A program made the translations under genes and the position numbers. Source: Leucoraja ocellata (taxonomy: Eukaryota). Taken from it: DNA of 64,000 bases. Positions within the stretch are counted from its first letter, which is position 1, and every line of letters begins with the position of its first letter. The notes beneath the pieces were generated by a model. It was not told where the DNA came from. It ran no database searches and worked only from the letters and a program-made list of their open reading frames with translations. This document shows positions 3,293 to 55,779 of this stretch, piece by piece. Where the stretch lies: positions 1,488,001 to 1,552,000 of the forward strand of contig JAWMAR010000460.1 of the NCBI GenBank assembly GCA_036785375.1, written 5' to 3'.

Positions 3293-4125
3293 CTTCTACT
3301 CCTATCCTGTACCGTAGCTCTCGTATTTCATCTTGACTTGTTAAATGTCCTATTTTGTACCCCTTCCTATCTTATGTTACCAAAAGTCTGATCTTGACCA
3401 CTTCCTGTTGTTCTGTATATTGATTTTAGAAAAAACGCTGCCACTTAGGGCTGTGATTTTTGGCCATCTTACTCAGTCCCCCTCCGCTGCGCAGGACAAG
3501 AGGATTTTTCACATCGATGAAAAATAAAAGAGTTATTAGTGTTTAAAATATTTTGAGATTCTCTCTCCTGAAGGCCACGCCCCTTCCAGAGGAACGATAA
3601 AACCTGGAAGTGTTGAGTGCCTCAGTCAGTCTCTGCAAGATGGGGGAGCAAGTGGGTCATGTCTCTCAGTCTGAGCTGTGAATAACACTGAACACATGTC
3701 TACTAAACTGTGAGTGGTTTTACTTAATATAGTTTGAAAATATAGTTTGGAAATGCTAAAGCTGTGTTGCATTTGGTTTGGAAATGTTAAAGCTGTGATG
3801 ACAAATTAAAGTTGCCTTACCTAATTAAAGTTACCTTGCCTAATTAATGTTGCCTTGCCCAATTAAAGTTGCCTTGCCTTTATATAATTAAAAGTCTAAT
3901 CTTGACCGCTTCCTGTTTGCGCCTTATATTGATTTTAGAAAAAACGCTACCATGTACGGCTGTGAATTTTGGCCATCTTACACAGAGTCCCCTCCGCTCA
4001 TCGGGTGTTGAGGTTTTTCCTGTTGATGAAAAATAAAAGAGTTATTAGTGTTTAAAAATGTTGAGATTCTCTCTCCTGTCAATCATGCCATGAAGGCCGC
4101 CCTTTCTGGTGGGAGGGGAAGGGAC

Positions 4126-4157
4126 TATAAAACCCAGAAGTGTGGGCGTGGCTCAGT
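4126..4157 (+). promoter_or_regulatory. TATA box plus initiator-like motif inside the Helitron-like element
   Basis: TATAAAA at 4126-4132; TCAGT with A at 4155 (29 nt downstream); same spacing in three other copies. Confidence 0.5.
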
Positions 4158-4202
4158 CTGAAAAATGGAGGAGGGAGAGGTCATGACTAGCTGTCTTTAG
4201 TA

Positions 4203-4322
4203 GCCTTGCACCCTGCTTGAAATGGTATGAAACTGCACTTGAATTTGGTGGCCTTGCACCCTGCTTGAAGTGGTAAGAAACTGCACTTGAATTTGGTGGC
4301 CTTGCACCCTGCTTGAAATGGA
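4203..4322. repeat. 48-bp tandem repeat (~2.5 copies)
   Basis: Unit gccttgcaccctgcttgaaatggtatgaaactgcacttgaatttggtg; explains the 16-aa repeat in the spurious ORFs. Confidence 0.9.
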
Positions 4323-5669
4323 ATTTCAAGGAAAAGCCTTGAATCAACTGCCAGCCCTCCAGCCGTGAGTGAGAGAGCTGCCAGCACAACAGGCTTGAGT
4401 GACTGAGCCTCCAGCCCAAGATTCCATTTGGCCCACAATGTGCATACCCGCCGTCTGGAAACCAGTCCCTTCAGCCCATAACACCCATACTTGCAATCCA
4501 GAAAGCCCCACCCCCCCCCCCCCCCCCCCCCCCCCTCACTGGCCACCAATATTGGAATTGGTGGAGAGGTGGAATATTGCGTTGGGGGACCAGCCCTCTC
4601 GTGTGATGCTGGTACCCAACGGGTCCCACTTAGTCTAGTTTAGATTAAAAACCTATCTATAAGCCAAGTTTTCCAATACAGCAGCTCATAGAACCAAGAG
4701 TAGAGGAGTTCATTCAGGTTTCAAGTATAGCAGTGCACAGCATAAGTTGCTGGCTTTTTCAAAGCACGTACACCAGGGAGTTTGGAATGGAGGGCTATAA
4801 TGAATCAGCATACTGTGAGGTAGTGCTAAGGAGGATATGAATGTGACAGTGGAATGGTTATAAAGCAGAAGTGAAGTTTTAACAGGAAGAAAACCTGTGA
4901 AGAGGTATTCGCAGAATTGTTTATCAAAGTAAATATGGTGATGGAACGTGGAGAAATATATGCGATCACTGTTCACACTTAATAGACCAACAGTTTAAAT
5001 TTATTGTCCAGATATGGCTACGGCAACCATAATCATGGTTGACCTGTGATTCTTTGTCACATTGCAAGATTGCAATATGACTCACTGGGTTAAAAAGAGA
5101 CAGGTAAAAAGGTAAATGATTGACAGGGAAGCTTTGAAAATCAATAAAATATAACAGCTTCTGCCAAAGTTCTAAGCTCAGATCTGCCCCAGAAATGAAT
5201 AATTGAAGTAATAAACTGAGGAAATAAAATGATTGGCAGCAATCTCAATTGTTTTCTAACATTACACAAATGTTCAGTAAATGAGTTGAAATTATATTAA
5301 AACATATTTCTTTGGCTTCCTTTCAAGATGTTGAATCTGTTCTCCCTATTATCGTGAATACATGAATTTAGCATGCCTAATTCAGATACTTCACAACACT
5401 CTTTATTCACCCAACATTTCAAGTTGGTTACAGCTCAGATGCACAGCTTTTTTTTACAAATAGCACATGGTGTTAACATGAGGAATTGTGCAAGAAAATA
5501 TTTTGCTTAAAATTTGGACCATTTCTAAAAGGAAGTTAAATTGAGGGCACAGTTAAAACCTATACATATTTATGCTAGTTTAGGTGAGGCATTGGCTTGG
5601 ACTATGATGAGAATGAAAATAAATATGTGTGTTTTGAGTGGGTAGATCGCTCTCACTGGGCCTCATATG

Positions 5670-5810
5670 TTCATAACTTCATGTTATCGGAGCAGAATTA
5701 GGCCATTTGACCTATCAGGTCTATTCCGCCATTCAATCATGGCATCTCTCTCTTCCCCTCTCAACCCCATTTTCCTGTCTTCTCTCCATAACCGCTAACA
5801 CCCATACTAT
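5670..5810 (-). mobile_element. Degenerate CR1-type 3' tail fragment
   Basis: ggccatt...ccgccattcaatcatggc...tctccataacc resembles the CR1 3' UTR at 2190-2300. Confidence 0.6.
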
Positions 5811-7684
5811 TCATACATCTTCCCATACTACTCAGTGGTCTGCACTTGCTGAATTCTTCCTGCATGAAATGCCATCAAGGCTCTTGACCAAAAGGGATTC
5901 TCCAATGGGTTATGGCACAGAGGATGTGTGGAATCTGATGTTCTCTGCTGAAAAGGGTGCAAGGTAGGTTGTGTGAGATGGGACTGTGCTCTGCACTTTA
6001 CTGATTCTAATCTGCACATCTGCTGCATAAGTTAGTGCAGAGAGAACATGCCAGGAGTGACAAGCAGAAATGAAGAGAGTGGCAGTAATCTGCCAGGCAT
6101 GTTTGACTGTAGACATTGGTAATAGCATTCATAAGTAATTATACCTGAACAAAAACACACCTAACATGACCATCACTGTAGCAAAAGGGTAGTAATTCTA
6201 CAATTAATTTCTCCTTCTTTAGAGTCACAATGGAAGCTCTAAACACCCTCCTGAATTTTTGACCAGCTAAAGGTTTGCCAACAGCTGGGTGGAGGTGGAA
6301 AATGGCCGATTTTCCCCTTACATTTTGCAGCCGTGCTGCATGACATGCAATAAATATGCAGCTGGCTATGCGCTCCAACAAGTTTTCTTGTTCAGAGAAA
6401 TGAGACCCTATTTCAACCAGTAACATTTGAAACAACATTGCACAATGAAGATGTATGCCAAACTATATCTTAACATTTCTAAGTGCTGGAACACTTTGTA
6501 TTTGGAGGCGCCAGATCTGATTTCCCAAATTTTGCAATTCGCACATAACAACAGTGCTTTTGCAATTTACTCACAACACATCAATGTTCACATGATTGTG
6601 TTCAAAATCAAAATGCTACTCAATCCAACTTCTAGGTATTTGGCTTACAAATGTTCAAGGAAACTAACACTGCTTGTTCTTCAAGCAAAAATATAGAGCA
6701 AATATATAGAAAGAAGCCAGCAGATTTCGGGTTTACACAGCTCACACAAATGTAACTTGATTAATATACTACACATCTGAACAGATGTTGTCCATTGACT
6801 ATGGCAATATTTAACATATAATGTTTGTAATATTACTGTACGTATCGGACAACTGATTAATAAATTAATCATGAGCACACTTAATTGACTTTGTGTTGGT
6901 GGTTGTACAACTTTCCAATCTACTGTCCTTTTATTGCACAGGTTGCTTCTTCATGTGCTAAAGGCATCACATTTGAACATCAACAAAATTATATCAACCA
7001 CCTTTAGGGCCAAGCAATTTTATCTCCAGATTCTCATTTCAATCCATGGTCTAATTTGAAGTTACTATCAATGATGTCAGGGTGGTGGTCATTGAGTGGG
7101 CACATTAAAAATGCCAGGGTAAACATTGAAATTGTGCTGCAGCACTAGGGGACCTAGGAGACATAGGAAGAAGATTGCTGCCCTTCCTGGCTCTCATGAC
7201 TGACTGAACAAAAAATTGAAAAGACTGTTTTACTTCCTAGGCATCTGCTGACATTGTTCTGTGATTTGTTCATGGAAGCCTTAGTTGATAAAATGTGTAA
7301 CATGGTTCTGATGAGCCGCTGTTTGAACACTGCCTGCTCCTTTCTCATCAAGAAGCAAAAAGCACATATTTATCCCTCCAGCAACTTTCAAGTCCTCAGT
7401 TCAATTGTTAATTTCTCGAATAACCAAACTGAAGTACTCCTCCCGCTATTACATGTTGATTACGTTCATGGGAAAACTGAGGAAACAGTTGGTTCGCTGC
7501 TCAACCATTTTCATCTTTCGTCTCTCCCTTTCTTGCCTGGGTTCCCAGAGTCACTGTTACCTGTTTTGCAAGCTCCTTTGAATTTCACTACCTTTATAAC
7601 AGCAAGTTCTAAAAAATATGTATCCTCTTCCTCCCTCTGCTGTTATTTTTGGATTAATACTCATTTGTATTAACATTTCTCCTA

Positions 7685-7975
7685 ATGCCCCTATCCCACT
7701 TAGGAAACCTGAACAGAAACCTCTGGATACTTTGCGCCCCACCCAAGGTTTCCATGCGGTTCCCAGAGATTCCCGGAGGTTTTTGTCAGTCTCCTAAATG
7801 GTCGAAAGTGGTTTCCGCTTCTTCTATGTTCCGGCGATTATTTAAAAAAATTCAAAACATGCCGCGACTAAAATAGGTTGCCGTTTTAAAAATCGGTAAT
7901 TTTTTATTCAAAGCCGGTTGCGATGCTAGTTGAAGGTGGTTGCCGGAAGTTGCAGGTAGTGGAAGGTAAGACCTC
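7685..7975 (+). mobile_element. PIF/Harbinger-like MITE, left part
   Basis: TAA then TIR TGCCCCT(A/G)TCCCACTTAGGAAACC; homologous to 40665-41029 and 60032-60112, which end in GGGGCA followed by TAA/TTA. Confidence 0.7.
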
Positions 7976-8044
7976 CTTGGTGGAATAAAACTGGGTGAAA
8001 AAAAGGTATTTTCTTACATCCAGAACATTTTCTTACATCTAGCT

Positions 8045-8150
8045 CCCCCCCCCCCCCCCCCACCCAACCCCCTCTACTTTCAGTCTGAAGAGATGTTTCA
8101 ACCCTAAATGTAACCCATCCTTTTCTCTCCAGAGATGCTGCTACTGACAT
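8045..8150 (+). mobile_element. Degenerate Penelope-derived short element (hammerhead-like remnant)
   Basis: cagtctgaagag...ccatcc...tccagagatgctgc. Confidence 0.6.
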
Positions 8151-8480
8151 TTACAAGTACTAGGTTAATGTGAATGATATTAATTTATTGCCAGCAATCT
8201 CACTTCATCAACACCATAACCATTTCAAAGATTGAAAGCTGCAATGTTGTATGTTTACAACTTTCACTGGTATTTGGAAATCATTAATTCCACACATTTA
8301 TTTCCAGAGGTTGGTTGAAATTAATCTTATGTATATTCCTTTGAAGCCATTAGATTATTATTTTAACTGTTTTTCAGTGATTTTAATTTATGTGTAGAAA
8401 TGGACATAGTCAATAAAAATATTTTTATTTATGTAGATCTACATTTTTTTGTAGTATTGAATTAGGGGTGATCTTATCAA

Positions 8481-8770
8481 AACATATAAGATCTCTAGGA
8501 GGCAATGACAAGGTAGATGTCAATGTGTTTCCACTGGTAGGGGAATCTCGAATGAGCAGATGTAGTTACAAGGTCAGGAGGCCTTATAAATTCCTTCTTT
8601 TTTCTGATAGAAGGGGCTAGTGGATTCAAGGGATATGGGGAGATGATGGGTATGGGTTATTGATTGGGGACGATCAGCCATGATCACAATGAATGGCGGT
8701 GCTGGCTCGAAGGGCCGAATGGCCTCCTCCTGCACCTATTTTCTATGTTTCTATGTTTCTGTTTCTATGA
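8481..8770 (+). mobile_element. CR1 LINE 3' end
   Basis: gatcagccatgatcac...ggcctcctcctgcacct followed by (tttctatg)n tail. Confidence 0.85.
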
Positions 8771-10873
8771 GGCAGTCACTTAACACAGGAATGACTTATC
8801 GAGGATGTAAAATCTCTACACCCCAGAGTTGTGGAAGCAAGACATTTAATGGTGAAATAATTACATTTTTGCAATATCATGGAACTTTGGAAATTGATAG
8901 GCTTGAGGAGTGGAAGCTTGGGACAGATCAGTCGTGAACATATTGAAGAGCAGGGCAAGCCTAACCTACTGCAAGTCGAATGACCTTTTGCAGCTTCATT
9001 TTCTTAAGCCCATTTTCAATTACTTCCGGCATTAGACTTGTTTTCGACCTGTAGAGTAGTACAGCATAGAACATGAATGAATCCGATTTGGATTCATACA
9101 TAGACCCAAATTTTGCAGAATAAGATCAAGCTCTATAGTCCAATATTTTGCAAGCTCTTCTGTGGTCATTGGCCTTTTTAATCTTGATTATTCTGTTACA
9201 TTTGAGAGAACCTTTATAAGATGGCACAGCCGGGTCCAGTCGCCGTTGTGGTAGCTCCGTAGAGATTGTGCATTTTTTTAACTTGTATGTACATTTTAAA
9301 TTTATTTCTTACTAGTAACACTTAGCACTAACAATGTACGATCGGAAAACACTCTTAAAACAAAAGTTTGGCGTAATCCAAGGCTTTTTAGACATGTTAC
9401 TCACCGATCCAGCATGGCCGGCAGAGGTCACAAGAGCCCACCGCGGCAACAACAATGGGAGCGAAGCTCTGGGAAAATGTCAGAGAAAACAGCAAGGTAA
9501 GCGCGGGGGAATTGGCTGAGAGCCCAAGTCTTCCGTCCACCTCAGCCCAGCATTCTTCTGGCTAACGTCCAGTCCCTGGATAACAAGTTGGATGACCTCA
9601 GGGCGAGGATCAGATTCCAGCGGGACATTAGAGACTGCAACATCTTCTGCCTGACCGAGACATGGCTGACCCCGCTGGTGCCAGATCAGGTCATCTGCCC
9701 AACTGAGTCCTTCACTGTTTGCCGTGCGGACAGAACAGAAGAATCCGGGAAATCAAAGGGTGGAGGGGTTTCCTTCATGACCAACAATAACAGGTACAAC
9801 CCTAGGAATATTAAGACACTTTCTCATTCCTGCTCGCCGGTCCTGGAGCATCTGAATATCTCATTCCGTCCACTTCACCTTCCTCGGGATTTCAGCTCAG
9901 TGATCATCACAGCCGTCTACATACCACCACATGCGGACACCGATGTGGCACTATCGGCCCTACACAATGTGTTATGTTGGCACTAAAACATGAACCCTGA
10001 TGCGGCTATGATGGTGGCTGAAGATTTTAATAAGGCAAATTTCAAAAAGGTCATGCCTAACTTCTGCCAACATATCACGTGTGTCACCAGGGGGGAAATA
10101 ACTTTGGACCACTGCTACATGCCATTGAGGAAAGGCTACAAGGCCGTTTCTCTCCCTCAGTTTGGAAAATCTGAACACATTGCCATTTTCCTGCAGTCGG
10201 AGTAGAAACAACGGACAGTACGGGAAGCGGCAATGAGGAGGAATGTAAAGCAGTGGGCTGACCATTCAGAGGCCACGCTGCATGATGTACTGAGCGATGT
10301 AAACTGGAATATGTTCCAAGCAAGTTACAGAGACCTCTGTGAGTTTGCGGAAACAATAGCCGATAACATCATTCCCACGGTAAGGGTTAGCATCTTTCCT
10401 AATCAAAAACCCTGGGTGGACAGGTCCATTCGCATTGCCTTGAATGCTCGCACCGCTGCTTACAACTCTGGCCTGGCATCCGGCAATATGGATGATTACA
10501 AGGCAGAGTCCTACAGACAGCGAAGGGTGGTGAAGGAGGCGAAAAGGAGGTACAGGGACAGGATGGAGCAGCCAGACAGACGCCTTTGGCAGGAGCTATG
10601 GACTATAACTAACTACCAGAGCAGCCCCTGCCCTCAACCACCTCTGGTGTCTGGATAACTGCCTGCTATTGAATGTCACAATAACTAAGGAGCTGATTGT
10701 GAACTTTAGAAGGCCTCAACATCCGAGGACGTACACGCCACTGGAGATAAATGGGACTACTGTGGATAGGATGAGCAGCTTTAAATACCTGGGTGTCCAC
10801 ATCACAAAGGATCTGACATGGACAACACACACTGCCGCACTGGTGAGTAAGGCAAAGCAACGCCTTTACAACC

Positions 10874-10948
10874 TCAGATTCAGATTCAGATTCAGATTCA
10901 ATTTTAATTGTCATTGTCAGTGTACAGTACAGAGACAACGAAATGCAT
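10874..10948 (-). mobile_element. Short 3'-tail insertion with (TGAATC)n tail, nested in the Rex1/Babar element
   Basis: 10907-10948 is the exact reverse complement of 54490-54531, the tail of the CORE-type SINE. Confidence 0.8.
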
Positions 10949-11336
10949 ATCAGGCAGCTGAGGAAATTCAGAGTCTCTCTGAGGATCCTTCAGTGCTTCT
11001 ACTCTGGGGCTGTAGAAAGCATCTTGTCCAGCAACATCTCAATCTGGTTTGGGAACAGCTCTGCCCAGACAGGAAGGCTCTGCAGAGAGTAGTGCGTTCA
11101 GCCAAACGCACTATGGGAACTACACTCACCCCCTGCAGGACATATACACCAGGAGGTGCTGATCCAGAGCCAGCAACATAATGAGGGACCCCTACCACCC
11201 CAGCAATGAACTTTTCCAGCTGCTATGATCAGTCAAGCCTCTGCTGTCACACTGTGAAAAAAGAGAGGATGAGACGGAGTTTCTACCCACAGGCCTTCAG
11301 GACCATAAACTCTTATCTCACCAGGGACTAATTTAC

Positions 11337-11368
11337 GTCTGAAGAAGGGTTTAGGCCCGAAACGTTAC
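11337..11368 (+). ncRNA. Minimal type-I hammerhead-like ribozyme motif
   Basis: CUGAAGA-A-GGGU(UUAG)GCCC-GAAACGUU; stem I only ~2 bp (GU/AC), so activity is uncertain. Confidence 0.55.
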
Positions 11369-11428
11369 CTATTTCCTTCGCTCCATAGATGCTGCTGCAC
11401 CCGCTGAGTTTCTCCAGCTTTTTTGTGT
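11337..11428 (+). mobile_element. 92-bp Penelope-derived element with 17-bp TSD
   Basis: accagggactaatttac at 11320-11336 and 11429-11445; body matches the PLE 3' terminus at 24980-25070. Confidence 0.9.
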
Positions 11429-12276
11429 ACCAGGGACTAATTTACTGTTGTGTTATGTCTAAATTAATTTTTTTTTCAAAAATGTAAATACTGGTTCTGT
11501 TATATTCTGTTCTGTTGTTCTGTTGTTTTTTCACAATCTGTAGGCATTGCCACTTTCATTTCACTGCACATCTTGTATGTGTATGTTACAAATAAAGTTG
11601 ACGACTTGACTTGAAAAGCACTTCTCCCATCGATAGTTATTCGGTAGTTCTCCTGCATGCTATTCTCCGATTTTAATTATCTTCCACAGTAAATTTATGT
11701 AAGTATTGCTTTATTTCAATTGTCCCTTTACTTCACCCACACATAAACCTCTGGGCCTCTGCACTATATGCAGTAAACAAGCAGTACTGTTCCCTTCAAC
11801 TAGCACAATATTGTCAAATGAAAAATAAATAGGAAAATAAATAATCTGTAAAGCAAGTTGCAGTTGCAATATCAAATAAATAATTCTGGTTCATTCTAAG
11901 GTCATGACAAATTAAAATATGATATTTGAAGAAGCCAGCGGTTTTTATCCATCAATGGCTCAGTAAATCAATGAGATGTATGAAAAGTTTGGATTTCTCA
12001 GCTCCATTGAGCATCTGTTCTCTGTTTGAAAATATAATGTCAGCCTTATTTGTTAATTTGTGGCAGAAATAACTGTTGACTTTAACTTTGAAAATATTTT
12101 AAACTATTCAGGAATTTAACAACTATAATTAATAGAAAATATCACAGTTCATCTACAGTATGAAAGTTGTGGGAATTTGCAAACCATCTGCACTTTGCAA
12201 TGGATTGTTCAGAATGGAGCATTAACGTGTTATCTCAATCCGTGTAATAGTCAAACTCAAAACATATACTTCAGAC

Positions 12277-13500: not shown

Positions 13501-14259
13501 TTTAAATTATATCTCCCAATCCCTACTTTTTATCTGCCTTCCTCAACACGAGTACATTTCTCTCACCATCTCCCACCATCTCGTCAAACTTTGCCTTACC
13601 TGCTCCATCGGTTCGGTCAGCTCCCATCCACGAGTCCCACATTTCTCCTTTATTGTCCACTTTTTCCTCTCGTCCCCAGAGCATGTTACCTTTTTCACAT
13701 TTGGGATTCTTCCACCCGACACTGACGATTCACCATCTGTAGGTCCTCCAAGTGCGCTGAACTCCAACCCAAAGGCACACACACACACAAAATTTGTAGC
13801 TGAGCCTCTGCCTGTGAATGGTGAATCCAGCAACGGTTTACCTTAATCTTCACTGGCTTCTTGCCCCTCTACCACATCGTGGCCAGGCTGCAGCGCAAAA
13901 GTGAAAGTCACAAGTGCAGAAAGGCAAAAAGAGATGGGATAAGAAGATATATGTCAACATCACATTCAGCTTGCAAAACAAAAGAAAAGAGGGAAGAGGT
14001 GGAAGTTAGCTGTACCAAGTCCGTTTTAGTTCGATAATTATTATAACCTAATTCTAGCTATGGACAGTGGTTGCTGCTGCAATTGTGACATTCTCTTTCT
14101 CCCGTTGGTTAGTTTATACAGATTGTGATCATGTGCCACCTTGTGCTACAAGAGAAAAGGAATTTGTTCATGAATATCCAGCATATATTTGATGTCCTCT
14201 TAGTTGGCAGTATGGATCAGATGTGAAATGTTATGTTGTGTGTGGTGCAATCTGGCATA

Positions 14260-15925
14260 TCTGTATAATTAAAAGTCTCACCTTGACTACTTCCTGTCTG
14301 CGCTGTATATTGATTTTAGAATAAACTGGACAAGTACTGCAAAACCTGGCGCCTAAAATCAAGCCCAGAAAAAACGGTCTCTTGTGTGTTCCACCTCCAT
14401 AATGCAGAAGCCACAAGAGAACCAAACATCTATCTGAGAAGGATAAAACTGAAGTATTCCCCCACTCCAACCTACCTCGGAGTGACCTTTGACAGGACCC
14501 TATCCTTCAAGGAACATCTCAAAAGAACAGCAGCTAAGGTGAAGTCCAGAAACAATCTCCTCAGTAAGCTTGCTGGCTCAAAGTGGGGGGGCAGCAGCCC
14601 CCACACTGCGCATTTCAGCACTAGCCCTTGCATTTTCTTCAGCCGAATATTGTGCCCCTGTTTGGTCCAGGTCATCCCACACACACCATGTGGACACTCA
14701 ACTGAACACAACAATGAGGATCATCACAGGAACAATCCGCTCAACACCACTCCCCTGGCTCCCTGTCCTATCCAACATAGCCCCTCCACACATCCGGCGA
14801 TGAGTCCTCACTCAAAGGATGCTCCAAAAGATCAAAAGCTCCCCTCACCTGCCAATTCACATGGACATCGTCAACCCACCCACTGCTCGACTTCCATCTA
14901 GACGACCAATTTGGAAGAACCCACCACCAGCTGATTTCATCATCCAATCAGCTTGGAAAAAGGGATGGGAGTCCAAGGACGTCCCAAATAAACATCTGTT
15001 GTCAGACCCCACCCTGGCACCAATCTCCCAAGGAAGCAGTGGACGACGCTGAATAGATTCAGGACTGGGCATTGCCCCTGCTTGGCCAGCCTTCACAAAT
15101 GGGCAGCAGTCCAACCCCACGGTGTGCTTGTGGAGAGTAGCAAACAATGCAACACATCATTGAAGCATGCCCTCAACAAAGACTCAAAGGAGGACCTTTC
15201 ACCCTTCATACAGCAGATCAAGAGGCAACTGCTTGGCTAAAGGACTTTGCATTCGCTAAATAAAAAAATAAATAAAACGCTACCCTGTATCGCTGTGATC
15301 TTTGGCCATCTTACTTACAGTCCTCCTCCGCCCTAGACAGCCTCGAGGATTTTTCCCATCGATGAAAAATAAAAAAATTATGAGTGTTTAAAAAACCTTG
15401 AGATCAGCTGATTGGTCCTCTCACCTGTCAATCACGGCAATTAAGGTAACGCCCCTTCCGAGGGGGGGGGGGGGCAGGGCTATAAACCCCAGATGCCTGG
15501 ACGTGAGTCAGTCACTCTGCAAGATCGCGAGGGAGAGGCCACAACTGTCATTCTAAGCTGTGAATCAACTGAACTGTGAGTCTGCAATGTACTTGCAATA
15601 AATGATTTGTTAGCCCTCAATGACAATGCCATGAGTTGTTTGGCCTGCTGCCCCACGTGTGCTTGAAAGTGCAATGCTTAGTTGGAAATGAAATGACAAT
15701 GCCATGAGTTGTTTGGCCTACTGCCCTGCCTGTGCTTAAAAGTGCAATGCTTAATTGGAAATGAAATGAAACCAAATGACAATGCCATGAGTTGTTTGGC
15801 CTACTGCCCTGCCTGTGCTTGAAAGTGCAATGCTTAATTGGAGATGAAATGAAATAAAATGACAATGCCATGAATTGTTTGGCCTGCTGCCCTGCCTGTG
15901 CTTGAAACTGCAATGCTTCATTAAG
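14260..15925 (+). mobile_element. Helitron-like element, 3' end missing, interrupted by a Vingi LINE
   Basis: A|TCTGTATAATTAAAAGTC 5' end; sequence resumes at 15276; TATA 15481 and Inr A 15510; ~73-84-bp repeats at 15618-15915. Confidence 0.75.
14326..15275 (+). mobile_element. Vingi/Ingi-clade LINE, 5'-truncated
   Basis: YLGVTFDRTLSFKEHL...RNNLLSKLAGSKWG; SAEYCAPVW; PLPWLPVLSNIAPPHIRR; C-terminal CxC...H...C knuckle; tail cattcgctaaataaa. Confidence 0.8.
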
Positions 15926-15931
15926 TCCGAC

Positions 15932-16440: not shown

Positions 16441-19400
16441 TAGCAATGCTACAAAATTTTGAGATTTTTAAATTCAAGTCTGCAATTTATCCCATCAGAT
16501 AAAGCATAAAAATAATTAATTTGACATCTAATTCACTTTCATATCTTCAGTATTAAAAAAGTTATGGGCATTTTCATACTCGGAAATTAGCATCTTCTTC
16601 CCTATTGCTTTTCCATTGACTTAATACAAAAGCTGTGATCGAGGACTGTCAAAGGCCCATAACTTTCTTAAAAATCAAGAGAACTGAATAAAATGTTCAG
16701 TTATTATAAATTGAAGCATTCTGAAACAAATATAAAACATCTTACTTGGATGACCTGAAATTAAAGCATATAATGACTTAATTACCTAATTGTAGTTAAT
16801 TACAAAATTGACCGTTGTGACGGAAATAGTAATAAACACCCAGACTGCCTTGAAAATTCAAAAATGTGATATTCTCAAGATCAGAACTTTAATATTATAT
16901 GCTGTAAGTCCATAAAAGATAGGTAAATAAATTACAATTTCTAGCAATAGACCATGACTTTATGGAGAAGATCAGTTGCTAGCTGGTACATTACCATATC
17001 ATAATCAGTAGCATTGTTATACTCCTCAGATTGTAACCAATAAGCAACTCTGTACACCTTGTTTTTCCTCAACTTTTCAATTTTGGCATTGTAAACTACA
17101 AGTTTTTGCTATTCAAACCATGCATGACATGCCTTTCTGGAACGGGAAAAATCCTCGGCACATATATGGCGGAGGGGGGCTCTGAGCAAGGTCGCCAAAA
17201 ATGACGGCCGTAAGTGGTGGCGTTATCTCGGAAATCGCAGCACAGATGGCCAAAACCGGTCAACATCAGGGGTATAAAGGTGGGGAAAGTCGTGTGGGGC
17301 TTTACGCCGATGACACATTACTATATCTCTCCGATCCAGAAGCCTCTGTTCTTCCCTTGTTAGATTTTATTAAATCATTTGGCAAGCTTTCTGGATACAC
17401 AGTCAACTGGAGTAAGAGTGAGTTCATGCCTTTATCAGACAATATAGATTCAGATTTTCTTGAGGCTCTACCATTTAAGATAGTATATGACCACTTTACA
17501 TATCTAGGACTCAAAATACCCCTAAACCCCAAACTTATATTCAAACTTAACTACACTGATATGATTACAAAGTTAAAACTGAACAGAGAGAAATGGAGGA
17601 TTTTACCCTTGTCTATAGTGGGGCGTATTAACGCTATCAAGATGGTGTCTCTTCCTAGATTCATATATTTATTCCAAAATCTTCTAATTTTTCTTACTTT
17701 ATCATTTTTTAAAAAATTGGATTCCATTATCCTTCCATTCATTTGGGGCTATAAAGCCCACCGTATATCAAAAGCACATTTTCAAAAGCCAAAATATGAG
17801 GGAGGCATGGGCCTTCCTATATTTAGGCACTACTATTGGGCAGCCAATGCTAGAGCTCTGATTTACTGACAATGGGGATTCCCAGATGAACCTTTGGATA
17901 ATAATAATAATACCCCTTCATGGCTAAACATTGAAAACACAGCAGTGAAAAATTCCTCCCTCTGTACTTTGCTTTTTTCCAAAACAGAATCCCCACATGT
18001 TGGTTGGTGAGAACTTCATTTTAAGAAATTCTATTCAAATTTTAAATCAGACAAGAAGTTTCAGTACATTGTCAAATGTCTCTATTTACACCCCCATATA
18101 TCACAACCACTCCTTTTTGCCATCACAGATGGATGGGGTGTTTGCTGTCTGGAGTGACAAGGGCCTTGCGACCCTCAGAGATCTATATATTGACAAAAAG
18201 TTTGCTTTGTTTAATCAGCTGAAATCAAAATTTAACCTTTCCAACTCTCATTTTTTTCGCTATCTCCAAATTAGGCACTACGTTAAAGTTCAAATTGCAA
18301 ATTTTCAAACCATGCCTGACAGTTGCCCACTCTATGAGCTTCTGCAGCTTCCTCCAGACTCCAAACATCTAATATCTCGCTTTGTGAGTCTATTCACCAC
18401 CTCTGTATCCACTACCCATCTGAAAGAAGCCTGGTCTACTGAGATGGAAGTCTACCGAATCTACCCTGCTATTTCTCCATTATGTGACAGATGCAAAAGT
18501 GCAGATGGTTCTTTAACACATATTTTCTGGCTCTGTCCTCATATACAAAGATACTGGTCTAAAATATTTAAGTGGTTTTCTGGGGTCTATGGAAAAGATA
18601 TTCTCCCTGATCCAGAACTGGCACTTTTTGGATGCTCAGAGACTGCTTCGTACTTCACGTCTGAAGAACAACAAGCACTGATGCTTCGTATGGTGGCAGC
18701 CAAGAAAATGATCCTAACAGACTGGAAATCATCTACACCCCCCTGTTTTGCAATGCATGACTGTGTAGCACCATGTGGATTGTACCAATACTGTTATGTC
18801 TGGCGGCTTGTATTTTTATTATTTTATTTATTTATTTATTTATTTTTCCTTCCTTTTTTTTCCTGTTGTCTTTTTCAGTTTTTATTTTTTTTTTGTTTGT
18901 TTTGTTCTGTATTGTTAAAAAATCGTATAAAATAATAAAAATATTAAAAACGAAAAATTAATGTAACTGAATGAAATTTTCAGTTATTATAGATTGAAGC
19001 ATTCTGAAACAAATATGAAACAATCTTACTTGGATGACCTGAAATTAAAGCTTATAATTAGTTAGTTACCTAATTGTAGCTAATTACAAAATTCAATTAC
19101 TAGATCTAAACATCTATCCATTTCTTAAGAAAAGGTTAACATTTTTTAATAGCCTAAGTGTCCAAATAATATTCACACAAGAATTCACAATATAACATGA
19201 TTTTTAAATCTCATTGTCATGAATTTATAGGCCAAATGGAAGGAATTTAGTGTTTAACTGCTGTAAATTAATGGACATTCAAATCATCTTGCGAGTAAGA
19301 TTTTGTGGAACTCGATCAATTGGAACATTGCGGTTTGCGGTGAATTTAAACCCTATATCGGCAGGAAAAACACTGCCGGTTCGTATATTTACATAATGAC

Positions 19401-36750: not shown

Positions 36751-37296
36751 TTCCACACAAGCAACATCTGAGGTCAACATTGAACACCGTTCGCTGGAGC
36801 TGTGAGGCAGCAGCTCCATTAGCCATGCCACTGTACTACTCTTAAAGGAAGTTTAAAGGAAACATATTTATTCCTCCAGAGTAATATTGTCATTGGTTTA
36901 AGCATATTTTATCCAAAAACCCATGAATCACCAAGTTTATCCATGGCAACTAACTTTGGATGCCCGTAGCACACAAATGAAAGGTGAAAAGTACTGCAGA
37001 AATTCAGATTATTTCTATCTGCTACATTCAAATAGTCCCTACTTAGTAAACTTTTCACCGCTAATTGCAAATGCACATCTGGAGTTAATAAGATTAAATA
37101 AATATGCCTAGATTGTCAAACCTACTGTTAAAATTCTAACAAAAAATTAGTGTGGATTTTGTGATCAACAATAAACAAACTCCGAGTAAGATGGCCAAAA
37201 ACCACAGCCATATGTGGTAGTGTTTTTTTTTTCTAAAATCAATGTAAAGTGCAAACAGGAAGTGGTCAAGATTAGACTTTTAATTATATAGAATGC

Positions 37297-37522
37297 AAGG
37301 CAACTTTAATTCGACAAGGCAACTTTAATTGGGCAAAGCAACATTAATTGGGCAAAGCAACTTTAATTGGGCATGGCGACTTTAATTGGGCATGGCGACT
37401 TTAATTGGGCATGGCGACTTTAATTGGGCATGGCGACTTTAATTGGGCACGGCAACTTTAATTGGGCACGGCAACTTTAATTGGGCACGGCAACTTTAAT
37501 TATGCAAGGCAACTTTAATTAG
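37297..37522. repeat. 19-bp minisatellite (~12 copies)
   Basis: gc(a/g)actttaattgggca(t/c)g. Confidence 0.95.
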
Positions 37523-38004
37523 GAAAGTCAGCTTTAGCATTTCCAAAGCACAGGCAACCCGGCTTTAACATTTCCAAAGCACAGGCAACATTTCCAAACT
37601 ATATTTTCAAACCACATTAAGGGCAATGACAGGTCAGTAAAACCGCACAGTTTAGTAGACATGTGTTCAGTATTATTCACAGACTGAGAATTTCCGCCTC
37701 TCGCTCCCCCATATTGCAGAGAACTGAGGCACCTCCACACTTCCGGTTTTTATAGTCTCTCCGGTAGGGGCATGGCCTTCAGGAGAGAGAATCTCAACAT
37801 TTTGTAAACACTTATAACTCTTTTATTTTTCATCGATGGGAAAGATCCTCAGCGCATGATTAGCAGAGGGGGATTCTGAGTAAGGCCCAAAAATCACAGC
37901 CGTACATGGTAGCTTTTTTTTCTAAAATCAATTTAAAGCGAAAACAGGAAGTGGTCAAGAATAGACATTTATATTATAGAGAAGGCAAGGCAACTTTAAT
38001 TAGG

Positions 38005-38291
38005 CTACACAGCTTTAGCATTTCCAAACCATAGGCAACACAGCTTTAGCATCTCCAAACCAAAGGCAACACAGCCTTAGTATTTCCAAACCAAAGGCAA
38101 CACAGCCTTAGCATTTCCAAACCAAATGTAACACAGCCTTAGCATTTTCAAACCAAAAGCAACACAGCCTTAGCATTTCCAAACCAAAGGCAACACAGCT
38201 TTAGCATTTCCAAACCAAAGGTAACACAGCTTTAGCATTTCTAAATCAAAGGCAACACAGCTTTAGCATTTCCAAACCAAAGGTAACACAG
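38005..38291. repeat. 31-bp minisatellite (~9 copies)
   Basis: caacacagc(c/t)ttagcatttccaaaccaaagg. Confidence 0.95.
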
Positions 38292-48730: not shown

Positions 48731-51700
48731 AACAATAGACAATAGACAATTGACAATAGGTGCAGGAGTAGGCCATTCGGCCCTTCGAGCCAGCACTGCC
48801 ATTCAATGTGATCAGGGCCGATCATCCCCAATCAGTAACCCGTTCCTGCCTCCTCCCCATACCCCCTGACTGCTATATTTAAGAGCCCTATCTAGCTCTC
48901 TCTTGAAAGTATCAAGAGAACTGGCCTCCACCACCCTCAGACGCAGAGAATTCCACAGACTCACACTATGTGAGAAAAAGTTTCCTTATCTCCATTCTAT
49001 ATGGCTTACTCCTTATTCTTAAACCGTGGCCCCCTGGTTCTGGACTCCCCCAACATCGGGAACATGTTTCCTGCCTCCAGCGTGTCCAAACTCTTAACAA
49101 TCTTATATGTTTCAATAAGATATCCTCTCATCCTTCTAAACTCCAGAGTGTACAAGCCCAGCCGTTCCATTCTCTCAGCATATGACAGTCCCGCCACCCC
49201 GGAAATTAACCTTGTAAACCTACGCTGCTAATCCCTCAATAGCAAGAATGTCCTTCCTCAAATTAGGGGACCAAAACTGCACGCAATACTCCAGGACCCT
49301 GTACAACAGAAGAATTACCTCTTTGCTCCTATACTACTATTATAAAGGCCAACATGCCATTCACTTTCTTCACTGCCTGCTGTACCTGCATGCTTAGACT
49401 GATGAACAAGGACCCCCAGATCCCGTTGTACTTCCCCTTTTCTCAACTTGACGCCATTTAGATAGTAATCTGCCTTCCTGTTTTTGATACCAAAGTGGAT
49501 AACCTCACATTTATCCACATTAAACTTAATCTGCCTTGCATCTGCCCACTCCCCCAACCTGTCCAAGTCACCCTGCATTCTCATAGCATCCTCCTCACAG
49601 TTCACACTGCCACCCAGCTTTGTGTCATCTGCAAATTTGCTAATGTTACTTTGAATCCCTTCATCCAAACCATTGATGTCTATTGTAATTAGATGTGGTC
49701 CCAGCACCGAGCCTTACGGTACTCCACTAGTCACTGCCTGTCATTCTGAAAGGGACCCGTTAATCCCTACTCTTTGTTTCCTGTCTGCCAACCACTTCTC
49801 TATCCATGTCAGAACTCTACCCCCAATACCATGTACCCTAATTTTGCCCACTAATCTCCTATGTGGGACCTTATCAAATGCTTTCTGAAAATCCAGGTAC
49901 ACTACACCCACTGGCTCTCCCTTTTCCTAGTTACATCTTCAAAAAATTCCAGAAGATTAAATGAGCATGATTTCCCCTTCGTAAATCCATGCTAGAGCCA
50001 CTTCCTTAAGTACCCTGGTAGGCAGACCATCAGGCCCTGGGGATTTAGCAGCCTTCAGTCCCATCAGTCTACCCAACACCATTTCCTGCCTAATGTGGAT
50101 TTCCCTCAGTTCCTCCGTCACCCCAGATCCTCTGGCCACCAGTACATCAGTAAGATTGTCTGTGTCCACCTTAGTGAAGATGGATCCAAAGTGCCTGTTC
50201 AACTCATCTGCCATTTCCTTGTTCCCCATAATAAATTCACTTTTTTCAGCCTTCAAGGGTCCAGCTTTGGTCTTTACTAATTTTTTCCTCTTCACATACC
50301 TAAAGAAGCTTTTACTATCCTCCTTTATATTCTTGGCTAGCTTATTCGTATCTCATCTTTTCTCCCCATATTGTCTTTTTAGCTATCTTCTGTTGCTCTT
50401 TAAACATTACCCAATTCGCTTGCTTCCCACTCATCTTTGCTACATTGTATTTCTTCTCTTTTATTTTTATACTGTTCCTGACGTTCCTTGTCAGCCATGG
50501 TCGCCTCTTACTCCCCTTGGAATATGTCTTCCTCCTAGGGATGAACTGATCCTGCACCTTCTGTATTATTCCTAAAAATTCCTGCCATTGTTGTTCCACT
50601 GTCATCTCTGCTAGTGTATCTTTCCAGTCAACTTTGGCCAGTTCTTCCCTCATGGCCCCATAGTCCCCTTTATTCAACTGTAACACTGACACCTCCGATC
50701 TACCCTTCTCCCACTCCAATTGTTGATTAAACCTGACCATATTATGGTCACCACCTCCTAATGGCTCATTAACCTCAAATTCCTTTATCAAATCCGGTTC
50801 ATTACATAACACTAAATCCAGAATTGCCTTCTCCCTGGTAGGCTCCAATACAAGCTGCTCTAAGAATCCATCACAAAGGCACTATACAAAGTCCCTTTCT
50901 TGGGGTCCAGTACCAACCTGATTTTCCCAGTCTACCTGCATGTTGAAATCTCCCATAACAACCATAGCATTACCTTCGCTACATGCCGATTTTACCTCCT
51001 GATTCAATTTGCGCCCTATGTCCAGGCCACTGTTTGGGGGCCTGTAGATAAGTCCCATTAGGGTCTATTTACCCTTACAATTCCTCAGCTCTATCCATAC
51101 TGACTCCACATCTCCAGTTTCAGTCACCCCTTGCAAGGGACTGAATTTCATTCCTCCCCAACAGAGCTACCCCACCCCCTCTGCCCACCTGTCTGTCTTT
51201 TCGATAGGAGGTATACCCTTGGATATTCGGTTCCCAGCCCTGGCCCTCTTGTAGTCATGTCTCTGTAATTCCCACAACATCATACTTGTCAATTTCTAAC
51301 TGAGCCTCAAGCTCGTCCACTTTATTCCTTATAATTTGCGCATTCATATACAGTACTTTGACCTCCGTATTCACTTCCCCCCTTGCACCACTCGCAATTG
51401 GCCTGACCTTACTCTTTTATCCCTTCTCGAACTTTCCTTCCCATTAATTTGAGAATCTTTTGTAATTTTTACTGTACTCCTGTACTCACTTCCTCTTCAA
51501 CTCCATCTTTATACTCCCAATTTGTCAATCCCTCGCCCCCCCCCCCCCTACTATTTTGTTTAAACCCACACGTGTAGCCCTAGCAAACCTGCCTGCCACA
51601 ATGTCAGTCCCCCTCCAGTTAAGGTGTAACCCGTCCCCTTTGTACAGGTCACCCCTACCCAGAAGAGATCCCAGTGGTCTATAAATCTAAATCCTTGCTC

Positions 51701-52565
51701 CCTGCATCAGCCCCTCAGCCACACATCCAGATCCCCTATCGCCCTGTTCCTGTCCTCACTAGCACGAGGTACTGGAAGCAATCCAGAGATAACCACTCTA
51801 GAAAACCTGCTTTTCAGTCTTCTTCCTAACTCTCTGAACTCCTTCCTCTTCTTCCTGATGTCATTTGTGCCTACGTGCACAACTACTGCCGGCTGTTCAC
51901 CTTCTCTCTCGAGGATGTTCTGAATTCGCTCGTGACATCCTGAACCCTGGCACCAGGGAGGCAACAGACCATCCTTGTGTCTCGTCTGCTGCCACAGAAT
52001 CTCCTGTCTGCTCCTAGGACAATGGAGTCACCCACCACTATGGCTCTGCCCGACACCGGTCGAGTCCCATCTCTAGGATTGGAGACACCGACATGTCCGC
52101 CGCTCAGACTGGAAGCATCGTCTCCCCCAACAGTTCCCAAGAGGGCTTACCTGTTTTCATTAGGCACAGCCTCCTGGGTCTCCTGCACTCCACAGTTGCC
52201 ACTCTTTCTCTCAGTCACACACCTTCATTCTTCCCGTAACCTCACTGTAGGTCCTGCCCAGGAAACTCATTTTCCCAGATGGCCTGAGGTGATCCAGCTG
52301 CTTCTCCAGTGCCTCAACACAGTCCTTCAGGAGCTGAAGCTGGACGCACTTGCCACAGTTGTAACAGCCAGAGGCTCCATCTGTGTCCCTGGGCACCCAC
52401 ATTCTGCAAGCATCACACTGTCTCATCTGTCCTGTCATGTGTTCACCACGTCCCGTCCTCTCCAGCTTTTTGCGTAGCTTCCTCTCTGAAGATTCTTGAA
52501 CCAAAGACTCACAAGGCCGCTCCCCTAGAAATTTACCAATTTACAAACCAAATTCGTCAGTTTTA
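48731..52565 (-). mobile_element. Near full-length decayed CR1 LINE: ORF1 (zinc finger plus SGNH esterase) and ORF2 (APE-RT)
   Basis: CDAC...CGKC (52211-52504); VVGDSIV, CLPGAR, VHVGTND (51707-52140); LDLVL...DH endonuclease (50342-50848); KFADDTKL (49315-49707); (attgtct)n tail. Confidence 0.93.
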
Positions 52566-53399
52566 AACAGTTTTTACCCTGTGACTTACTCATCTTTCCC
52601 ACGGGTAACGCACCACTCTCACCACATGATTTGTTTTTCCAATGCCACTGTGCATTACAAATAGTGAATTTGTAAATTTGCTAGTGCAAAATTTGCTAAT
52701 AGGGAATAAAACATAAAAACTATAAAATAAATAATACAATTAATCAATTTCCGGAACCAAACTGAACGTGAGCAAATAATTCAATGGCTTTGTGTTAACA
52801 CCTTTAACTTATTTTCCTTCATCCATCTATCCAATGTAATCCTGAGAACTAGCTTAGCTTTGGAAGGGAAGTGTGGAACTTCATAGCACTCTGATGTAGT
52901 TTCCTCTGCCCTGAATTCTAGATGTCCCATATTTGATAATGTCATCATGGCCTTTATTGTTCATGTAGCAACATTTTCCTAATTCACTTCTAGGAATTGA
53001 TAATGGTTGGGAAGACCAGCATTTATCCGGTAAGTGCCTTCAACTGAAATGTCAGCCATATTGCTTTGTATGGAGCTACATTTTCATTACAAGGTAAGGA
53101 ATGGCAAATTTTCATTCCACAGGATATCTGTGCACTAAAGTAGGCTTTTACAAAATCTAGCAGCTTTATAGTCACCAATGCCAATGTTTGTTTATAATCC
53201 AAATTTAGTTAATTACAAGACTAAGTGGGACCCGTTGGGTCCCATGTTCACACGGGAGGGCTGGTCCTCCAATGCAATATTCCAGCTATCCACCAATTCC
53301 AATATTTGTGGCCAGTGGGGGGGGGGGGGCTTTCTAGAGCACTAGTATGGGTGTTGTGGGCCAAAGGGACTGGTTTCCAGAGGGCTAGTATGGACATTG

Positions 53400-53592
53400 N
53401 NNNNNNNNNNNNNNNNNNNNNNNNNNNNNNNNNNNNNNNNNNNNNNNNNNNNNNNNNNNNNNNNNNNNNNNNNNNNNNNNNNNNNNNNNNNNNNNNNNNN
53501 NNNNNNNNNNNNNNNNNNNNNNNNNNNNNNNNNNNNNNNNNNNNNNNNNNNNNNNNNNNNNNNNNNNNNNNNNNNNNNNNNNNNNNNNNNNN
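53400..53592. other. Assembly gap
   Basis: Run of N. Confidence 1.
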
Positions 53593-53799
53593 GAAACTTT
53601 CTTGAATCTACTCACATGGCTGAGCTCGGCCTCACCACTGTGGAGCTTCCGCAGTCAGCGGTACTTCCGCAATCAGTGTGACCTCTGCACCTACCAGAAA
53701 TTACGCAATCAGCATGACCTCTGCACTCTTTGAAATTATGCAATCAGCGCGACTTGTCCACTAAGCGGAAGTCACTGACTGAGCGGGACCTTAGTACTA

Positions 53800-54064
53800 A
53801 ACACAGTCGGAGCTAACAAAGCATTTATTCCTTCCAAACACAATCAGCGCTAACAAAACATTTATTCCTTCCAAACACAGTCGGAGCTTACAAAGCATTT
53901 ATTCCTTCAAAATAAAGTCGGAGCTAACAATGCATTTATTCCTTCAAAATACAGTCGGAGCTAACAAAGCATTTATTTTTTCCAAACACAATCGGAGCTA
54001 ACAAAGCATTTATTCCTTCCAAACTCAGTCGGAGCTACAAAGCATTTCTTCCTTCCAAACACAG
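53800..54064. repeat. 37-bp minisatellite (~7 copies), followed by ~65-bp repeats to ~54625
   Basis: cagtcggagctaacaaagcatttattccttccaaaca. Confidence 0.9.
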
Positions 54065-54296
54065 GCGTACCTCATTGCGTTGCCGTTTCAAGCACAAGGT
54101 AAGCCAAACAACTCATTGCATTGTCATTTCATTTCAATTTTGCATTGCAGTTTCAAGCACAAGGCAGGCCAAACAAGTAATTGCATTGTCATTTTATTTC
54201 CAATTTGCATTGCAGTTTCAAGCACAGGGCAGGCCAAACAACTCAATGCATTGTTATTTAATTTCCATTTTGCATTGCAGTTTCGACAGATTGTAA

Positions 54297-54563
54297 GGCG
54301 ACAGATAGCACAATGGGCTAAGAGTTCGGCTGGCAACCGGAAGGTAGCCGGTTCAAATCCCGCTTGGAGTGCATACTGTCGTTGTGTCCTTGGGCAAGAC
54401 ACTTCACCCACCTTTGCCTGTAATGGAATGGCGGCAGGCGCGGGCACACCGCGACGCCCTGTGTCTCCCTTTCAAGGGAGATGCTAAAAATGCATTTCGT
54501 TGTCTCTGTACTGTACACTGACAATGACAATAAATTGAATCATTTCATTTCATTTCATTTCAT
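54297..54563 (+). mobile_element. tRNA-derived CORE-type SINE
   Basis: A-box TAGCACAATGG at 54306-54316; B-box GGTTCAAATCC at 54350-54360; CORE-like TGTGTCCTTGGGCAAGACACTTCACC at 54383-54408; (cattt)n tail. Confidence 0.85.
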
Positions 54564-55779
54564 AATTTCCATTTTGCATTGCAGTTTCAAGCACAGGGCA
54601 GGCCAAACAACTCATTGCATTGTCATTAAGGGATAACAAGTCATTTATTGCAAGTACATTGCAGACTCACAGTTCAGTTGATTCACAGCTTAGAATCACA
54701 GTTGTGGCCTCTCCCTCGCGATCTTCCAGAGTGACTGGCTCACATCCAGACATCTGGGTTGTATAGTCCTGCTCCCCCCAGAGGGGGCATTGCCTTCATT
54801 GTGGTGAATGACAGGCCAGAGGACCAATCAGCTGATCTCAAGATTTTTTAAACACTCATAACTTTTTTATTTTTTATCGATCGGAAAAATCCTCTGGGCT
54901 GCCTCGGCAGAGGAGGACTGTGAGTAAGATGGCCAAAAATCATAGCGAAATAGGGTAGCGTTTTTTCTAAAATCAATATACAGCGCAGACAGGAAGTGGT
55001 CAAGATGAGTCTTTTAGTTATATAGATGTTAATTAACTGAATTTAATTTTATTTTTAATTTGCTAACTGATCACAGTTGGAATTAACCAAGTCTTGAAAT
55101 TAATAACATAAATAACATAATTTTGTTCAGACCGAAAGGTCTGAATGACAATAAAGGATCTATCTATCTAATGTCAACCACCAGAATATTAGTTAAATCA
55201 CACTCTGCAGAAAGCAGATTTCCTTTATTTACCATTCAATATGTTAAAATGTTAAACAGTCACCATATTCTGATCTCTCGTAAAATAAAACCCAGGTTTT
55301 CAAATCTTTATTTGTAATGCTCCACAGCAAGTAAAATGGTCAGGACTGTGTTTTAATTTTTCTTTATATTCTGTAGAGAATGAAGCACAATATTTCTCCA
55401 TGTTTTTGACCATTTGTCTTAATGTTTTATATCAGAGCATCAATATCCAGGCTTTTATATTCTATGCCTCTCGTTTACACTTTTATTAGCTTTTGCTGCG
55501 GCTTCTATAATCTGTAGAATTGGTATTAATGATTCCTGGACATGTACCTTTAAAACCATTTGCTCTTTTAGAGATTTAAAGCTATTTTCATTCCAATTGT
55601 AAAGCTAACAACACATATTAACAAGCTTGCAGATCCTTCAGACACATTTTAGTCCAATGGCATGTTATGTGATTCTCATTCTCAAAAGGTAAACTATAAT
55701 TCTCAGATATTCTGAGAAAACTGAGTGGTAATATCATAGAATTAGAACACTCTTCCTACAATCATGAGCCCATAGTGAA

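Follow-up and report, generated by a model that had tools for sequence, protein, structure and literature searches.

The question raised by this locus is whether a family of mobile elements carries a Pol II promoter, and whether that promoter is aimed at the tandem arrays lying in front of it. The sequence comes from Leucoraja ocellata (contig JAWMAR010000460.1, positions 1,488,001–1,552,000, forward strand), and the window, to which all coordinates refer, is this whole stretch of 64,000 nt. Its copies A to D belong to a single high-copy, non-autonomous family of canonical Helitrons. Copy A (3370..4638, plus strand) is complete and has two tandem 5' modules, A1 and A2, the latter (3879..4196) starting at an internal 5' terminus. 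Copy B (14260..15922, plus strand) is interrupted by LINE-like sequence inserted at about 14326–15270. Copy C (37179..38291, minus strand) consists of a 31-mer array (x9.4), module C1 with its 5' end at 37982, further 31-mers, a 19-mer array (x12.7) and the truncated module C2 (37292–37179). Copy D (53216..55026, minus strand) retains both ends and contains an assembly gap at 53400–53592.

The Helitron identity was borne out when the 5' TC, the 3' hairpin with CTAG and insertion between A and T were each tested. Copies A, B and D and modules C1 and C2 start with TC, the internal terminus of A2 reads TT, and the TC is directly preceded by A in copies A, B and D. The 3' end, for which CTAG or CTRR was sought, is CTAG followed by T in copy A and CTTG, one change from CTAG, followed by T in copy D; no 3' end was found in copies B and C. 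A hairpin lies 11 nt before the terminus in both complete copies, with a perfect stem of 7–8 bp in D (53216..53243, minus strand; z -2.34) and 7 bp with one mismatch in A (4611..4638, plus strand; z -1.38, weak taken alone). Both of the two copies with both ends, A and D, are inserted between A and T. Canonical Helitrons insert with no target-site duplication, and none is present at these two insertions. The flanks of D are the two arms of a single palindrome, with a clean insertion at its centre; an apparent 8-nt target duplication there was rejected because the palindromic target accounts for the match. Helentron/HINE-type elements have sub-terminal inverted repeats and insert between T and T. 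That class was rejected, since the targets are A and T and there are no sub-terminal inverted repeats; nor does any inverted repeat link the element ends in A or D.

Matching contigs number 35,982 in run X5 and 26,157 in run X6 (public runs, kind unrecorded). Loose ends occur before 3373 (85 reads) and before 3881 (49 reads; 100 and 104 contigs), and the sequences beyond them terminate in ATC and agree with one another at just 0.40–0.53. The flanks at both 5' ends of copy A, external and internal, are therefore varied. This read and contig evidence concerns 5' ends, and that for the 3' end comes from the window copies only. A Pfam scan of 40 of the 47 window ORFs of at least 120 aa (four crossing N gaps and three mostly overlapping scanned ORFs were left out) gave a Helitron domain in none and matches in seven, to RVT_1 or ALKBH8_N only, and no autonomous copy was seen in the window. 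Rfam gave no match within the window, and the 5' and 3' end patterns found no locus in viral, metagenome and prokaryote collections. A distant relative at 17269–17141 has the sub-terminal block in common with the family and diverges before the promoter.

All five modules are homologous, and each has a TATA-like box followed by an initiator (Inr). A TATA box about 30 nt before the initiator is the rule for a core promoter. The TATA/Inr coordinate pairs first noted proved exact: on the plus strand GATAAAA to TCAGT in A1 (3596..3626; Inr A 3624), TATAAAA 4126 and Inr A 4155 in A2, and TATAAA 15481 and Inr A 15510 in B; on the minus strand TATAAAA 37754 and Inr A 37725 in C1, and TATACAA 54765 and Inr A 54736 in D. 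The distance from TATA start to Inr A is 28 nt in A1 and 29 nt in the other four. YCAGT is found in all five modules and TATAAA in three, the boxes of A1 and D having decayed privately. At position 3596 of A1, T makes up 98.5–99.7% of contig depth (X1, X5, X6) and is found in 42/42 RNA reads, so the G of A1 is a private change.

The spacing itself carries less weight than was claimed for it. The spacers had been said to differ between copies; they are homologous, agreeing at 85% of positions within a pair and at 67% across lineages, and different spacers of the same length were for this reason rejected as evidence of selection. Since one module gave rise to all five sites, the 29-nt spacing mostly reflects shared ancestry. 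When 29-nt windows along the module were used as a control, with length counted as kept in at least 4/5 copies, 33% of 273 windows kept their length too, which makes conserved spacing a weak sign of function. The loose pattern TATA-N23-YCAGT occurs four times in the window, where 1.28 would be expected (100 simulations reached at most 7), and the strict TATA-Inr pattern twice against 0.08 expected, but these matches count as one event because all are copies of one repeat. Among 5 copies in only 3 lineages, lineage-level changes affect 0/11 TATA/Inr columns and 31/95 neighbouring columns (p=0.018); the TATA/Inr columns compared with the spacer alone give p=0.09, and in their retention they show no advantage over the 5' terminus (p=0.43). 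All 3 lineages have the promoter in the same position, about 220–270 nt inside the 5' end.

The case for a Pol II promoter layout is nevertheless stronger than first stated, owing to a canonical composite upstream. CCAAT motifs had been noted in two copies; they are there, in B and D, on the opposite strand to the promoter, as ATTGG at -70 (B) and -63 (D) from the TATA start. Both are parts of DECA-CCAAT composites (15411..15434, minus strand, in B; 54805..54828, plus strand, in D) with the geometry GAnnGAC-11bp-CCAAT, which the available text of bioRxiv 10.64898/2026.02.16.706105 describes for TALE (PBX/PREP), NF-Y and Sp2. In zebrafish blastulae TALE and NF-Y cooperate at sites of this kind, according to the available text of PMC6023610. 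Two matches to the composite occur in the window, where 0.13 would be expected; both lie at the promoter position, and the B and D composites are predicted PBX/PREP, NF-Y and Sp2 sites of a type known from early-embryo genes. Upstream sites are absent in some lineages: A2 has DECA alone (4076–4085, opposite strand) and lacks the CCAAT block, and A1 and C1 have neither, leaving 3/5 modules without CCAAT. GC boxes had also been reported, and here the exact CGCCCC holds for 2/5 modules and the GCCC core for 5/5, including A1 (3578–3583, plus strand) and B (15450). The ETS-like CCGGAAGT placed upstream in copy C in fact sits inside the TATA-Inr spacer. The order in B and D is DECA-CCAAT, GC box, TATA, Inr and candidate splice donor.

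The candidate donor GTGAGT is found in A1 (3710..3715, plus strand, +87 from the Inr), B (15576) and D (54670), and no loose read end falls at the GTGAGT cut among the 24 rows listed (1,903 further rows). ORFs from the first three ATGs past each Inr span 2–42 codons, and no coding exon follows. AATAAA occurs 88 nt downstream in B (15597) and D (54649) and is absent within 400 nt of the Inr in A1, A2 and C1. Core promoter motifs, donor and AATAAA together lie in 15450..15602 of B and 54644..54765 of D. Arrays begin about 40–135 nt beyond the Inr: 31-mer remnants and a 19-mer array (x4) after A1 (3745..3879, up to the internal 5' end), a 48-mer (x2.6) and a 30-mer array (x2.4) after A2 (4196..4419), 73–83-mers (x3.9) in B (15619..15922, plus strand), and 65-mers (with an insertion at about 54290–54541), 37-mers (x7.2) and 36-mers in D (53668..54627, minus strand). 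C1 faces 31-mers first and 19-mers after. The promoters thus do face tandem arrays as noted, but not all of these are different, the B 75-mer being homologous to the D 65-mer and the 31-mers of A1 to those of C.

Transcription was assessed in a single polyA RNA run, about 6% of it read and of unrecorded strandedness, in which 8 of 1,757 reads were at least 99% alike. The search of public runs listed no RNA run with a match, and this one was included as belonging to the same study. The minus:plus ratio of first mates is 0.67 upstream of A1 and 2.68 from the A1 Inr through the arrays; it is 0.71 upstream of A2, 1.79 past the A2 Inr and 0.66 in the 3' part. By point counts, halved for mates, these flips have p of about 1e-3 to 1e-7. 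In both modules tested (A1 and A2) the flip lies near the TATA box and begins upstream of the Inr, and the strand ratio over the TATA box equals that downstream (13:29 vs 30:60, p=0.84). It arises from loss of the other strand without gain past the Inr, presumed-sense depth per DNA depth being flat (95, 104, 91, 80 and 102 per million). Because of this loss and the onset before the Inr, the flip was rejected as proof of a start site. Neither a pile-up of read starts nor a rise at the Inr was seen in this run, and the claim that the promoter is aimed at the arrays to yield repeat ncRNA accordingly found no start site to support it.

We somewhat favor the reading that the block is a promoter plus first exon which the Helitron inherited, and that loss of the Rep-helicase gene left it facing minisatellites. 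The family ancestor would have combined DECA-CCAAT, a GC box, TATA and Inr with a first exon, short and non-coding and bearing a candidate donor, the whole serving as promoter of the Rep-helicase gene of an autonomous element and tuned to the germ line or early embryo. An internal deletion would then have taken out that gene and minisatellites would have expanded in its place; the 5' module would have been duplicated in tandem, and the DECA-CCAAT composite would have shifted as one unit. The arrays most likely occupy the lost coding region, so the promoter would face them by position and not by design. It is possible, though we think it rather unlikely, that promoter, first exon and donor instead come from a host gene whose sequence the Helitron captured and multiplied, as happened with the NUBPL promoter in HelibatN3. 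The layout of TATA, DECA-CCAAT and AATAAA would be compatible with such a capture, as it would with an LTR piece. DECA-CCAAT is known from host promoters, the relative at 17269–17141 shares the sub-terminal block and diverges before the promoter, and the Helitrons of one bat took the promoters of 15 genes, in 4,690 copies total (available text of PMC4224331 and PMC4778049). However, the block adjoins the 5' terminus in every lineage, which is where an element's own promoter would be expected, and the short ORFs past the Inr leave no coding exon.

Less probable still is a cassette that selection maintains for turning the arrays into repeat-rich transcripts, or one that today serves widely as a source of host start sites. 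TATA and Inr are kept in all lineages and the strand flip is positional around A1 and A2, but the nature of that flip, the missing start pile-up, the private mutation of 2/5 TATA boxes and the loss of CCAAT from 3/5 modules argue against it. Acquisition of the block by the Helitron from an LTR (U3-R) is very unlikely: the TATA, Inr and AATAAA of B and D would fit, and there is precedent for LTR promoters bound by NF-Y, human LTR12 among them (available text of PMC11802806), yet A1, A2 and C1 have no nearby AATAAA and LTR ends were not noticed in the sequence. Chance look-alike motifs in a single ancestral sequence, spread by transposition, are most improbable. The five sites do amount to one event and a loose TATA-Inr pattern is to be expected in a window of this size, but chance would also have to place, in the correct order and inside about 110 nt, a 10-base composite with the spacing known from the literature, then GC box, TATA and Inr.

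On the reading of an inherited Helitron promoter, the majority of copies are probably silent relics. By analogy with HelibatN3, intact copies of the B/D type may still be firing and able to give a host gene a first exon. An unlikely reading is that this Helitron has spread complete promoters of the TALE/NF-Y/Sp2 type, together with a first exon, by the thousand over the genomes of this fish group, and that they are active in the germ line or when the genome is activated, yielding minisatellite RNAs and providing host genes with start sites. Should the copies be silent, the family would be a commonplace relic of a genome rich in repeats. At high copy it offers a natural series, from modules with DECA and CCAAT through those with DECA alone to those with neither, in which the rules of TALE/NF-Y promoters can be tested, and it allows one to ask whether Helitrons beyond bats provide start sites.

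Promoter-carrying Helitrons are a known kind, and among the papers listed by our literature search none described this family or a Helitron DECA-CCAAT promoter; Repbase and Dfam lay outside that search and may already catalogue the family. In the available text of the literature consulted, vertebrate Helitron promoters are either presumed (Xenopus) or captured from hosts (bats), and this family adds an exact, testable layout. In the available text of PMC12001565, covering two families, an autonomous Xenopus Helitron is presumed to have its promoter at the 5' end and has minisatellites at its flanks. Heli1Xen1 shares with the window family a TC and TA-rich start, a hairpin and a CTAG end, and the non-autonomous copies of Heli2Xen and zebrafish Helitron-N1_DR are likewise filled with minisatellites; their repeat unit, compared by description, is 166 bp as against 19–83 bp here, and neither TATA-Inr nor DECA-CCAAT anatomy was found in that text. 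The host DECA-CCAAT elements of bioRxiv 10.64898/2026.02.16.706105 and PMC6023610 (eLife), which in the available text are promoters and enhancers, share order and spacing with 2/5 modules; "transposable" is absent from the main text of the former and "transpos" from the latter. HelibatN3 of Myotis bats, which carries the NUBPL promoter, first exon and splice donor (available text of PMC4778049 and PMC4224331), is likewise a high-copy, non-autonomous canonical Helitron that spreads a Pol II promoter and, along with it, a splice donor, the donor being a candidate here. HelibatN3 differs in its proven capture from a named host gene, tested activity and demonstrated chimeric transcripts, whereas the promoter of the window family is possibly the element's own and is followed by minisatellites and no coding exon. 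LTR12, in the available text of PMC11802806, resembles the family as a mobile element spreading CCAAT promoters of the germ-cell and early-embryo kind. LTR12 is a retroviral LTR and the window family a rolling-circle DNA element; if its promoters are indeed scattered as proposed, they would be a Helitron equivalent of the LTR12 promoters that NF-Y drives in primates.

The window (G+C about 40%, three N gaps) is repeat-rich DNA of vertebrate type in which the Pfam-matching ORFs are fragments (four RVT_1, three ALKBH8_N); its SINEs and LINEs are in a style that suggests a cartilaginous fish, probably a skate or ray. A profile built on the 5' modules of the Helitron copies A to D and run over the window recovered eight pieces: A1 (3371–3737), A2 (3879–4196), B in two parts (14257–14326 and 15272–15620), C1 (37982–37626), the truncated C2, D (55028–54626), and a distant relative at 17269–17141. 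Module B is split by a LINE-like insertion (14326–15270, plus strand) with an A-rich tail and an ORF that gave no Pfam match, lying within a TTTTAG/AAAA tract of the copy B 5' end. The TATA boxes and YCAGT initiator-like motifs (Inr) of the original prediction were confirmed in all five promoter-bearing modules, with spacings of 29, 29, 29, 29 and 28 nt. These modules are homologous (72–89% pairwise identity, in three lineages, B/D, A2 and A1/C1), and the five TATA/Inr sites therefore represent one ancestral site.

Copy A runs from TC, preceded by A, at 3370 to CTAG, followed by T, at 4638, and copy D from TC, preceded by A, at 55026 to CTTG, followed by T, at 53216. In both, a hairpin ends 11 nt before the 3' end (z −2.34 in D, −1.38 in A), and a search at these two copies found no inverted repeats joining the element ends. 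The flanks of copy D are the two 15-bp arms of an A+T-rich palindrome (55044–55030 and 53215–53201), with the element at its centre, so the insertion was clean. The Helitron assignment is thus upheld, these features being the canonical ones in the consulted section of PMC12001565. No Rep-helicase was found in the 40 of 47 window ORFs scanned. Two public runs of unrecorded kind, mapped to 3340–4500, recruited 35,982 (X5) and 26,157 (X6) contigs. At loose ends before 3373 and 3881 the flanks varied (agreement 0.40–0.53), so that both copy A modules are real element starts elsewhere. The internal 5' ends of A2, C1 and C2 come directly after a 19-mer repeat at an identical junction, which points to a single tandem duplication of the module, probably copied afterwards as a unit. 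Roughly 30 nt in from the 5' end (3402–3409 in A1), all five modules carry an invariant CTTCCTGT, which we take to be a reverse ETS-like site.

Some other repeats lie nearby. The piece at 17269–16440 (minus) shares about 130 nt with the Helitron sub-terminal block and diverges beyond; it could be an older relative or belong to a different family of DNA transposons. With a related non-coding piece (~19790–18960, minus) it flanks an L1-like fragment (17270–18950). An insertion in the 65-mer array of D (54290–54541, minus), part of which matches 10895–10948, looks SINE-like. Just upstream of copy C, an unrelated repeat-like piece (38900–38350, minus) has its own ATTGG, TATAAAA (38670) and repeated GTCCCCCCATGTTTTG motif.

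The two CCAAT sites of the original prediction are present, but as halves of composites that it missed: in B (15411–15433) and D (54806–54828) the reverse CCAAT, a predicted NF-Y site, is joined over 11 bp to GAnnGAC, the predicted TALE (PBX/PREP) site DECA. This geometry has only these two matches in the entire window, against 0.13 expected. It is ascribed to PBX/PREP, NF-Y and Sp2 in the part consulted of bioRxiv 10.64898/2026.02.16.706105; the relevant passage of a review writes TALE-10bp-CCAAT with its counting base unstated (PMC11802806), and an excerpt of PMC6023610 has TALE and NF-Y acting at DECA-CCAAT-type sites at the zebrafish blastula stage. Module A2 keeps DECA without the 12-nt block bearing CCAAT, and A1 and C1 have neither; stepwise loss is the simpler reading, in a direction that we infer. 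There are seven TGANTGACAG sites in the window (0.89 expected), four of them outside the family (5117, 22021, 29335 and 61124), all four without an exact CCAAT partner. Downstream of DECA/CCAAT follow a GC-rich box, TATA, Inr, GTGAGT (+67 in B and D, +87 in A1), AATAAA (+88 in B and D) and the minisatellite arrays, and the first three ATGs past each Inr open ORFs of 2–42 codons. The predicted promoter thus has a real layout, of greater specificity than the original prediction gave it.

The TATA-Inr spacer, originally said to differ between copies, is in fact homologous, with 67% identity between lineages. The 28–29 nt spacing is kept in all five modules, but 33% of 273 29-nt windows along the module likewise keep their length in at least four of five copies. 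Counting as lineage-level changes those common to at least two copies, or columns with three states, none of 11 TATAAA and YCAGT columns had changed, compared with 31 of 95 for all promoter-proximal non-motif columns (p=0.018), 5 of 20 for the spacer (p=0.09) and 8 of 102 for the 5' terminus (p=0.43). Indels cluster to either side of the stretch from TATA to Inr, which itself contains one. The pattern fits a promoter maintained in the lineages being copied, but comes from a sample of five copies with downstream columns dependent on the alignment. The TATA boxes of A1 and D are mutated, the change in A1 being private, and the promoter decays after insertion, consistent with the tendency of self-expressed zebrafish transposons to be younger, as stated in the portion consulted of PMC9341512. 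A minor variant (joint 4143–3617) that would shorten the spacing to 26 nt is present in all four runs and may be a mapping artefact; 6 RNA reads carry it, and in X5 and X6 it accounts for less than 1% of the contig depth at that place.

About 6% of one polyA RNA run (X11) gave 1,757 reads over the copy A region, only 8 of them at least 99% alike, so the reads derive from other copies, perhaps of another species. The minus/plus first-mate ratio was 0.67 upstream and 2.68 downstream of A1, and 0.71 upstream and 1.79 downstream of A2, with 0.66 in the 3' part; for a reverse-stranded library, these ratios would mean that sense RNA predominates from the promoter region across the arrays. When scaled by contig depth, however, sense coverage stays level and it is the antisense signal that falls, and the strand flip starts upstream of the Inr. 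No molecule starts were tabulated over the region in this portion of the run, and no splicing was seen among the 24 loose ends listed (there are 1,903 more). The ratios could be explained by a few host transcripts.

In an autonomous Helitron, the gene requires a promoter located between it and the 5' end of the element. The best explanation, held with moderate confidence, is that the block would be the promoter and first exon of an ancestral autonomous Helitron, retained when the gene was deleted, the arrays presumably expanding upon its loss. The main rival, for which we allow a minority chance, is capture from a host gene in the manner of HelibatN3, as the consulted parts of PMC4778049 and PMC4224331 describe it. 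It is unlikely that the block is kept by selection to transcribe the arrays or to supply start sites to the host. Derivation of the block from an LTR piece is improbable, and chance origin of the motifs more improbable still. No description of this family or its DECA-CCAAT grammar was found among the papers listed by literature searches. As a kind, Helitrons that bear promoters and are filled with minisatellites are already known; in Xenopus, according to the part consulted of PMC12001565, one autonomous Helitron has a presumed promoter between 5' end and gene and another is bounded by minisatellites.
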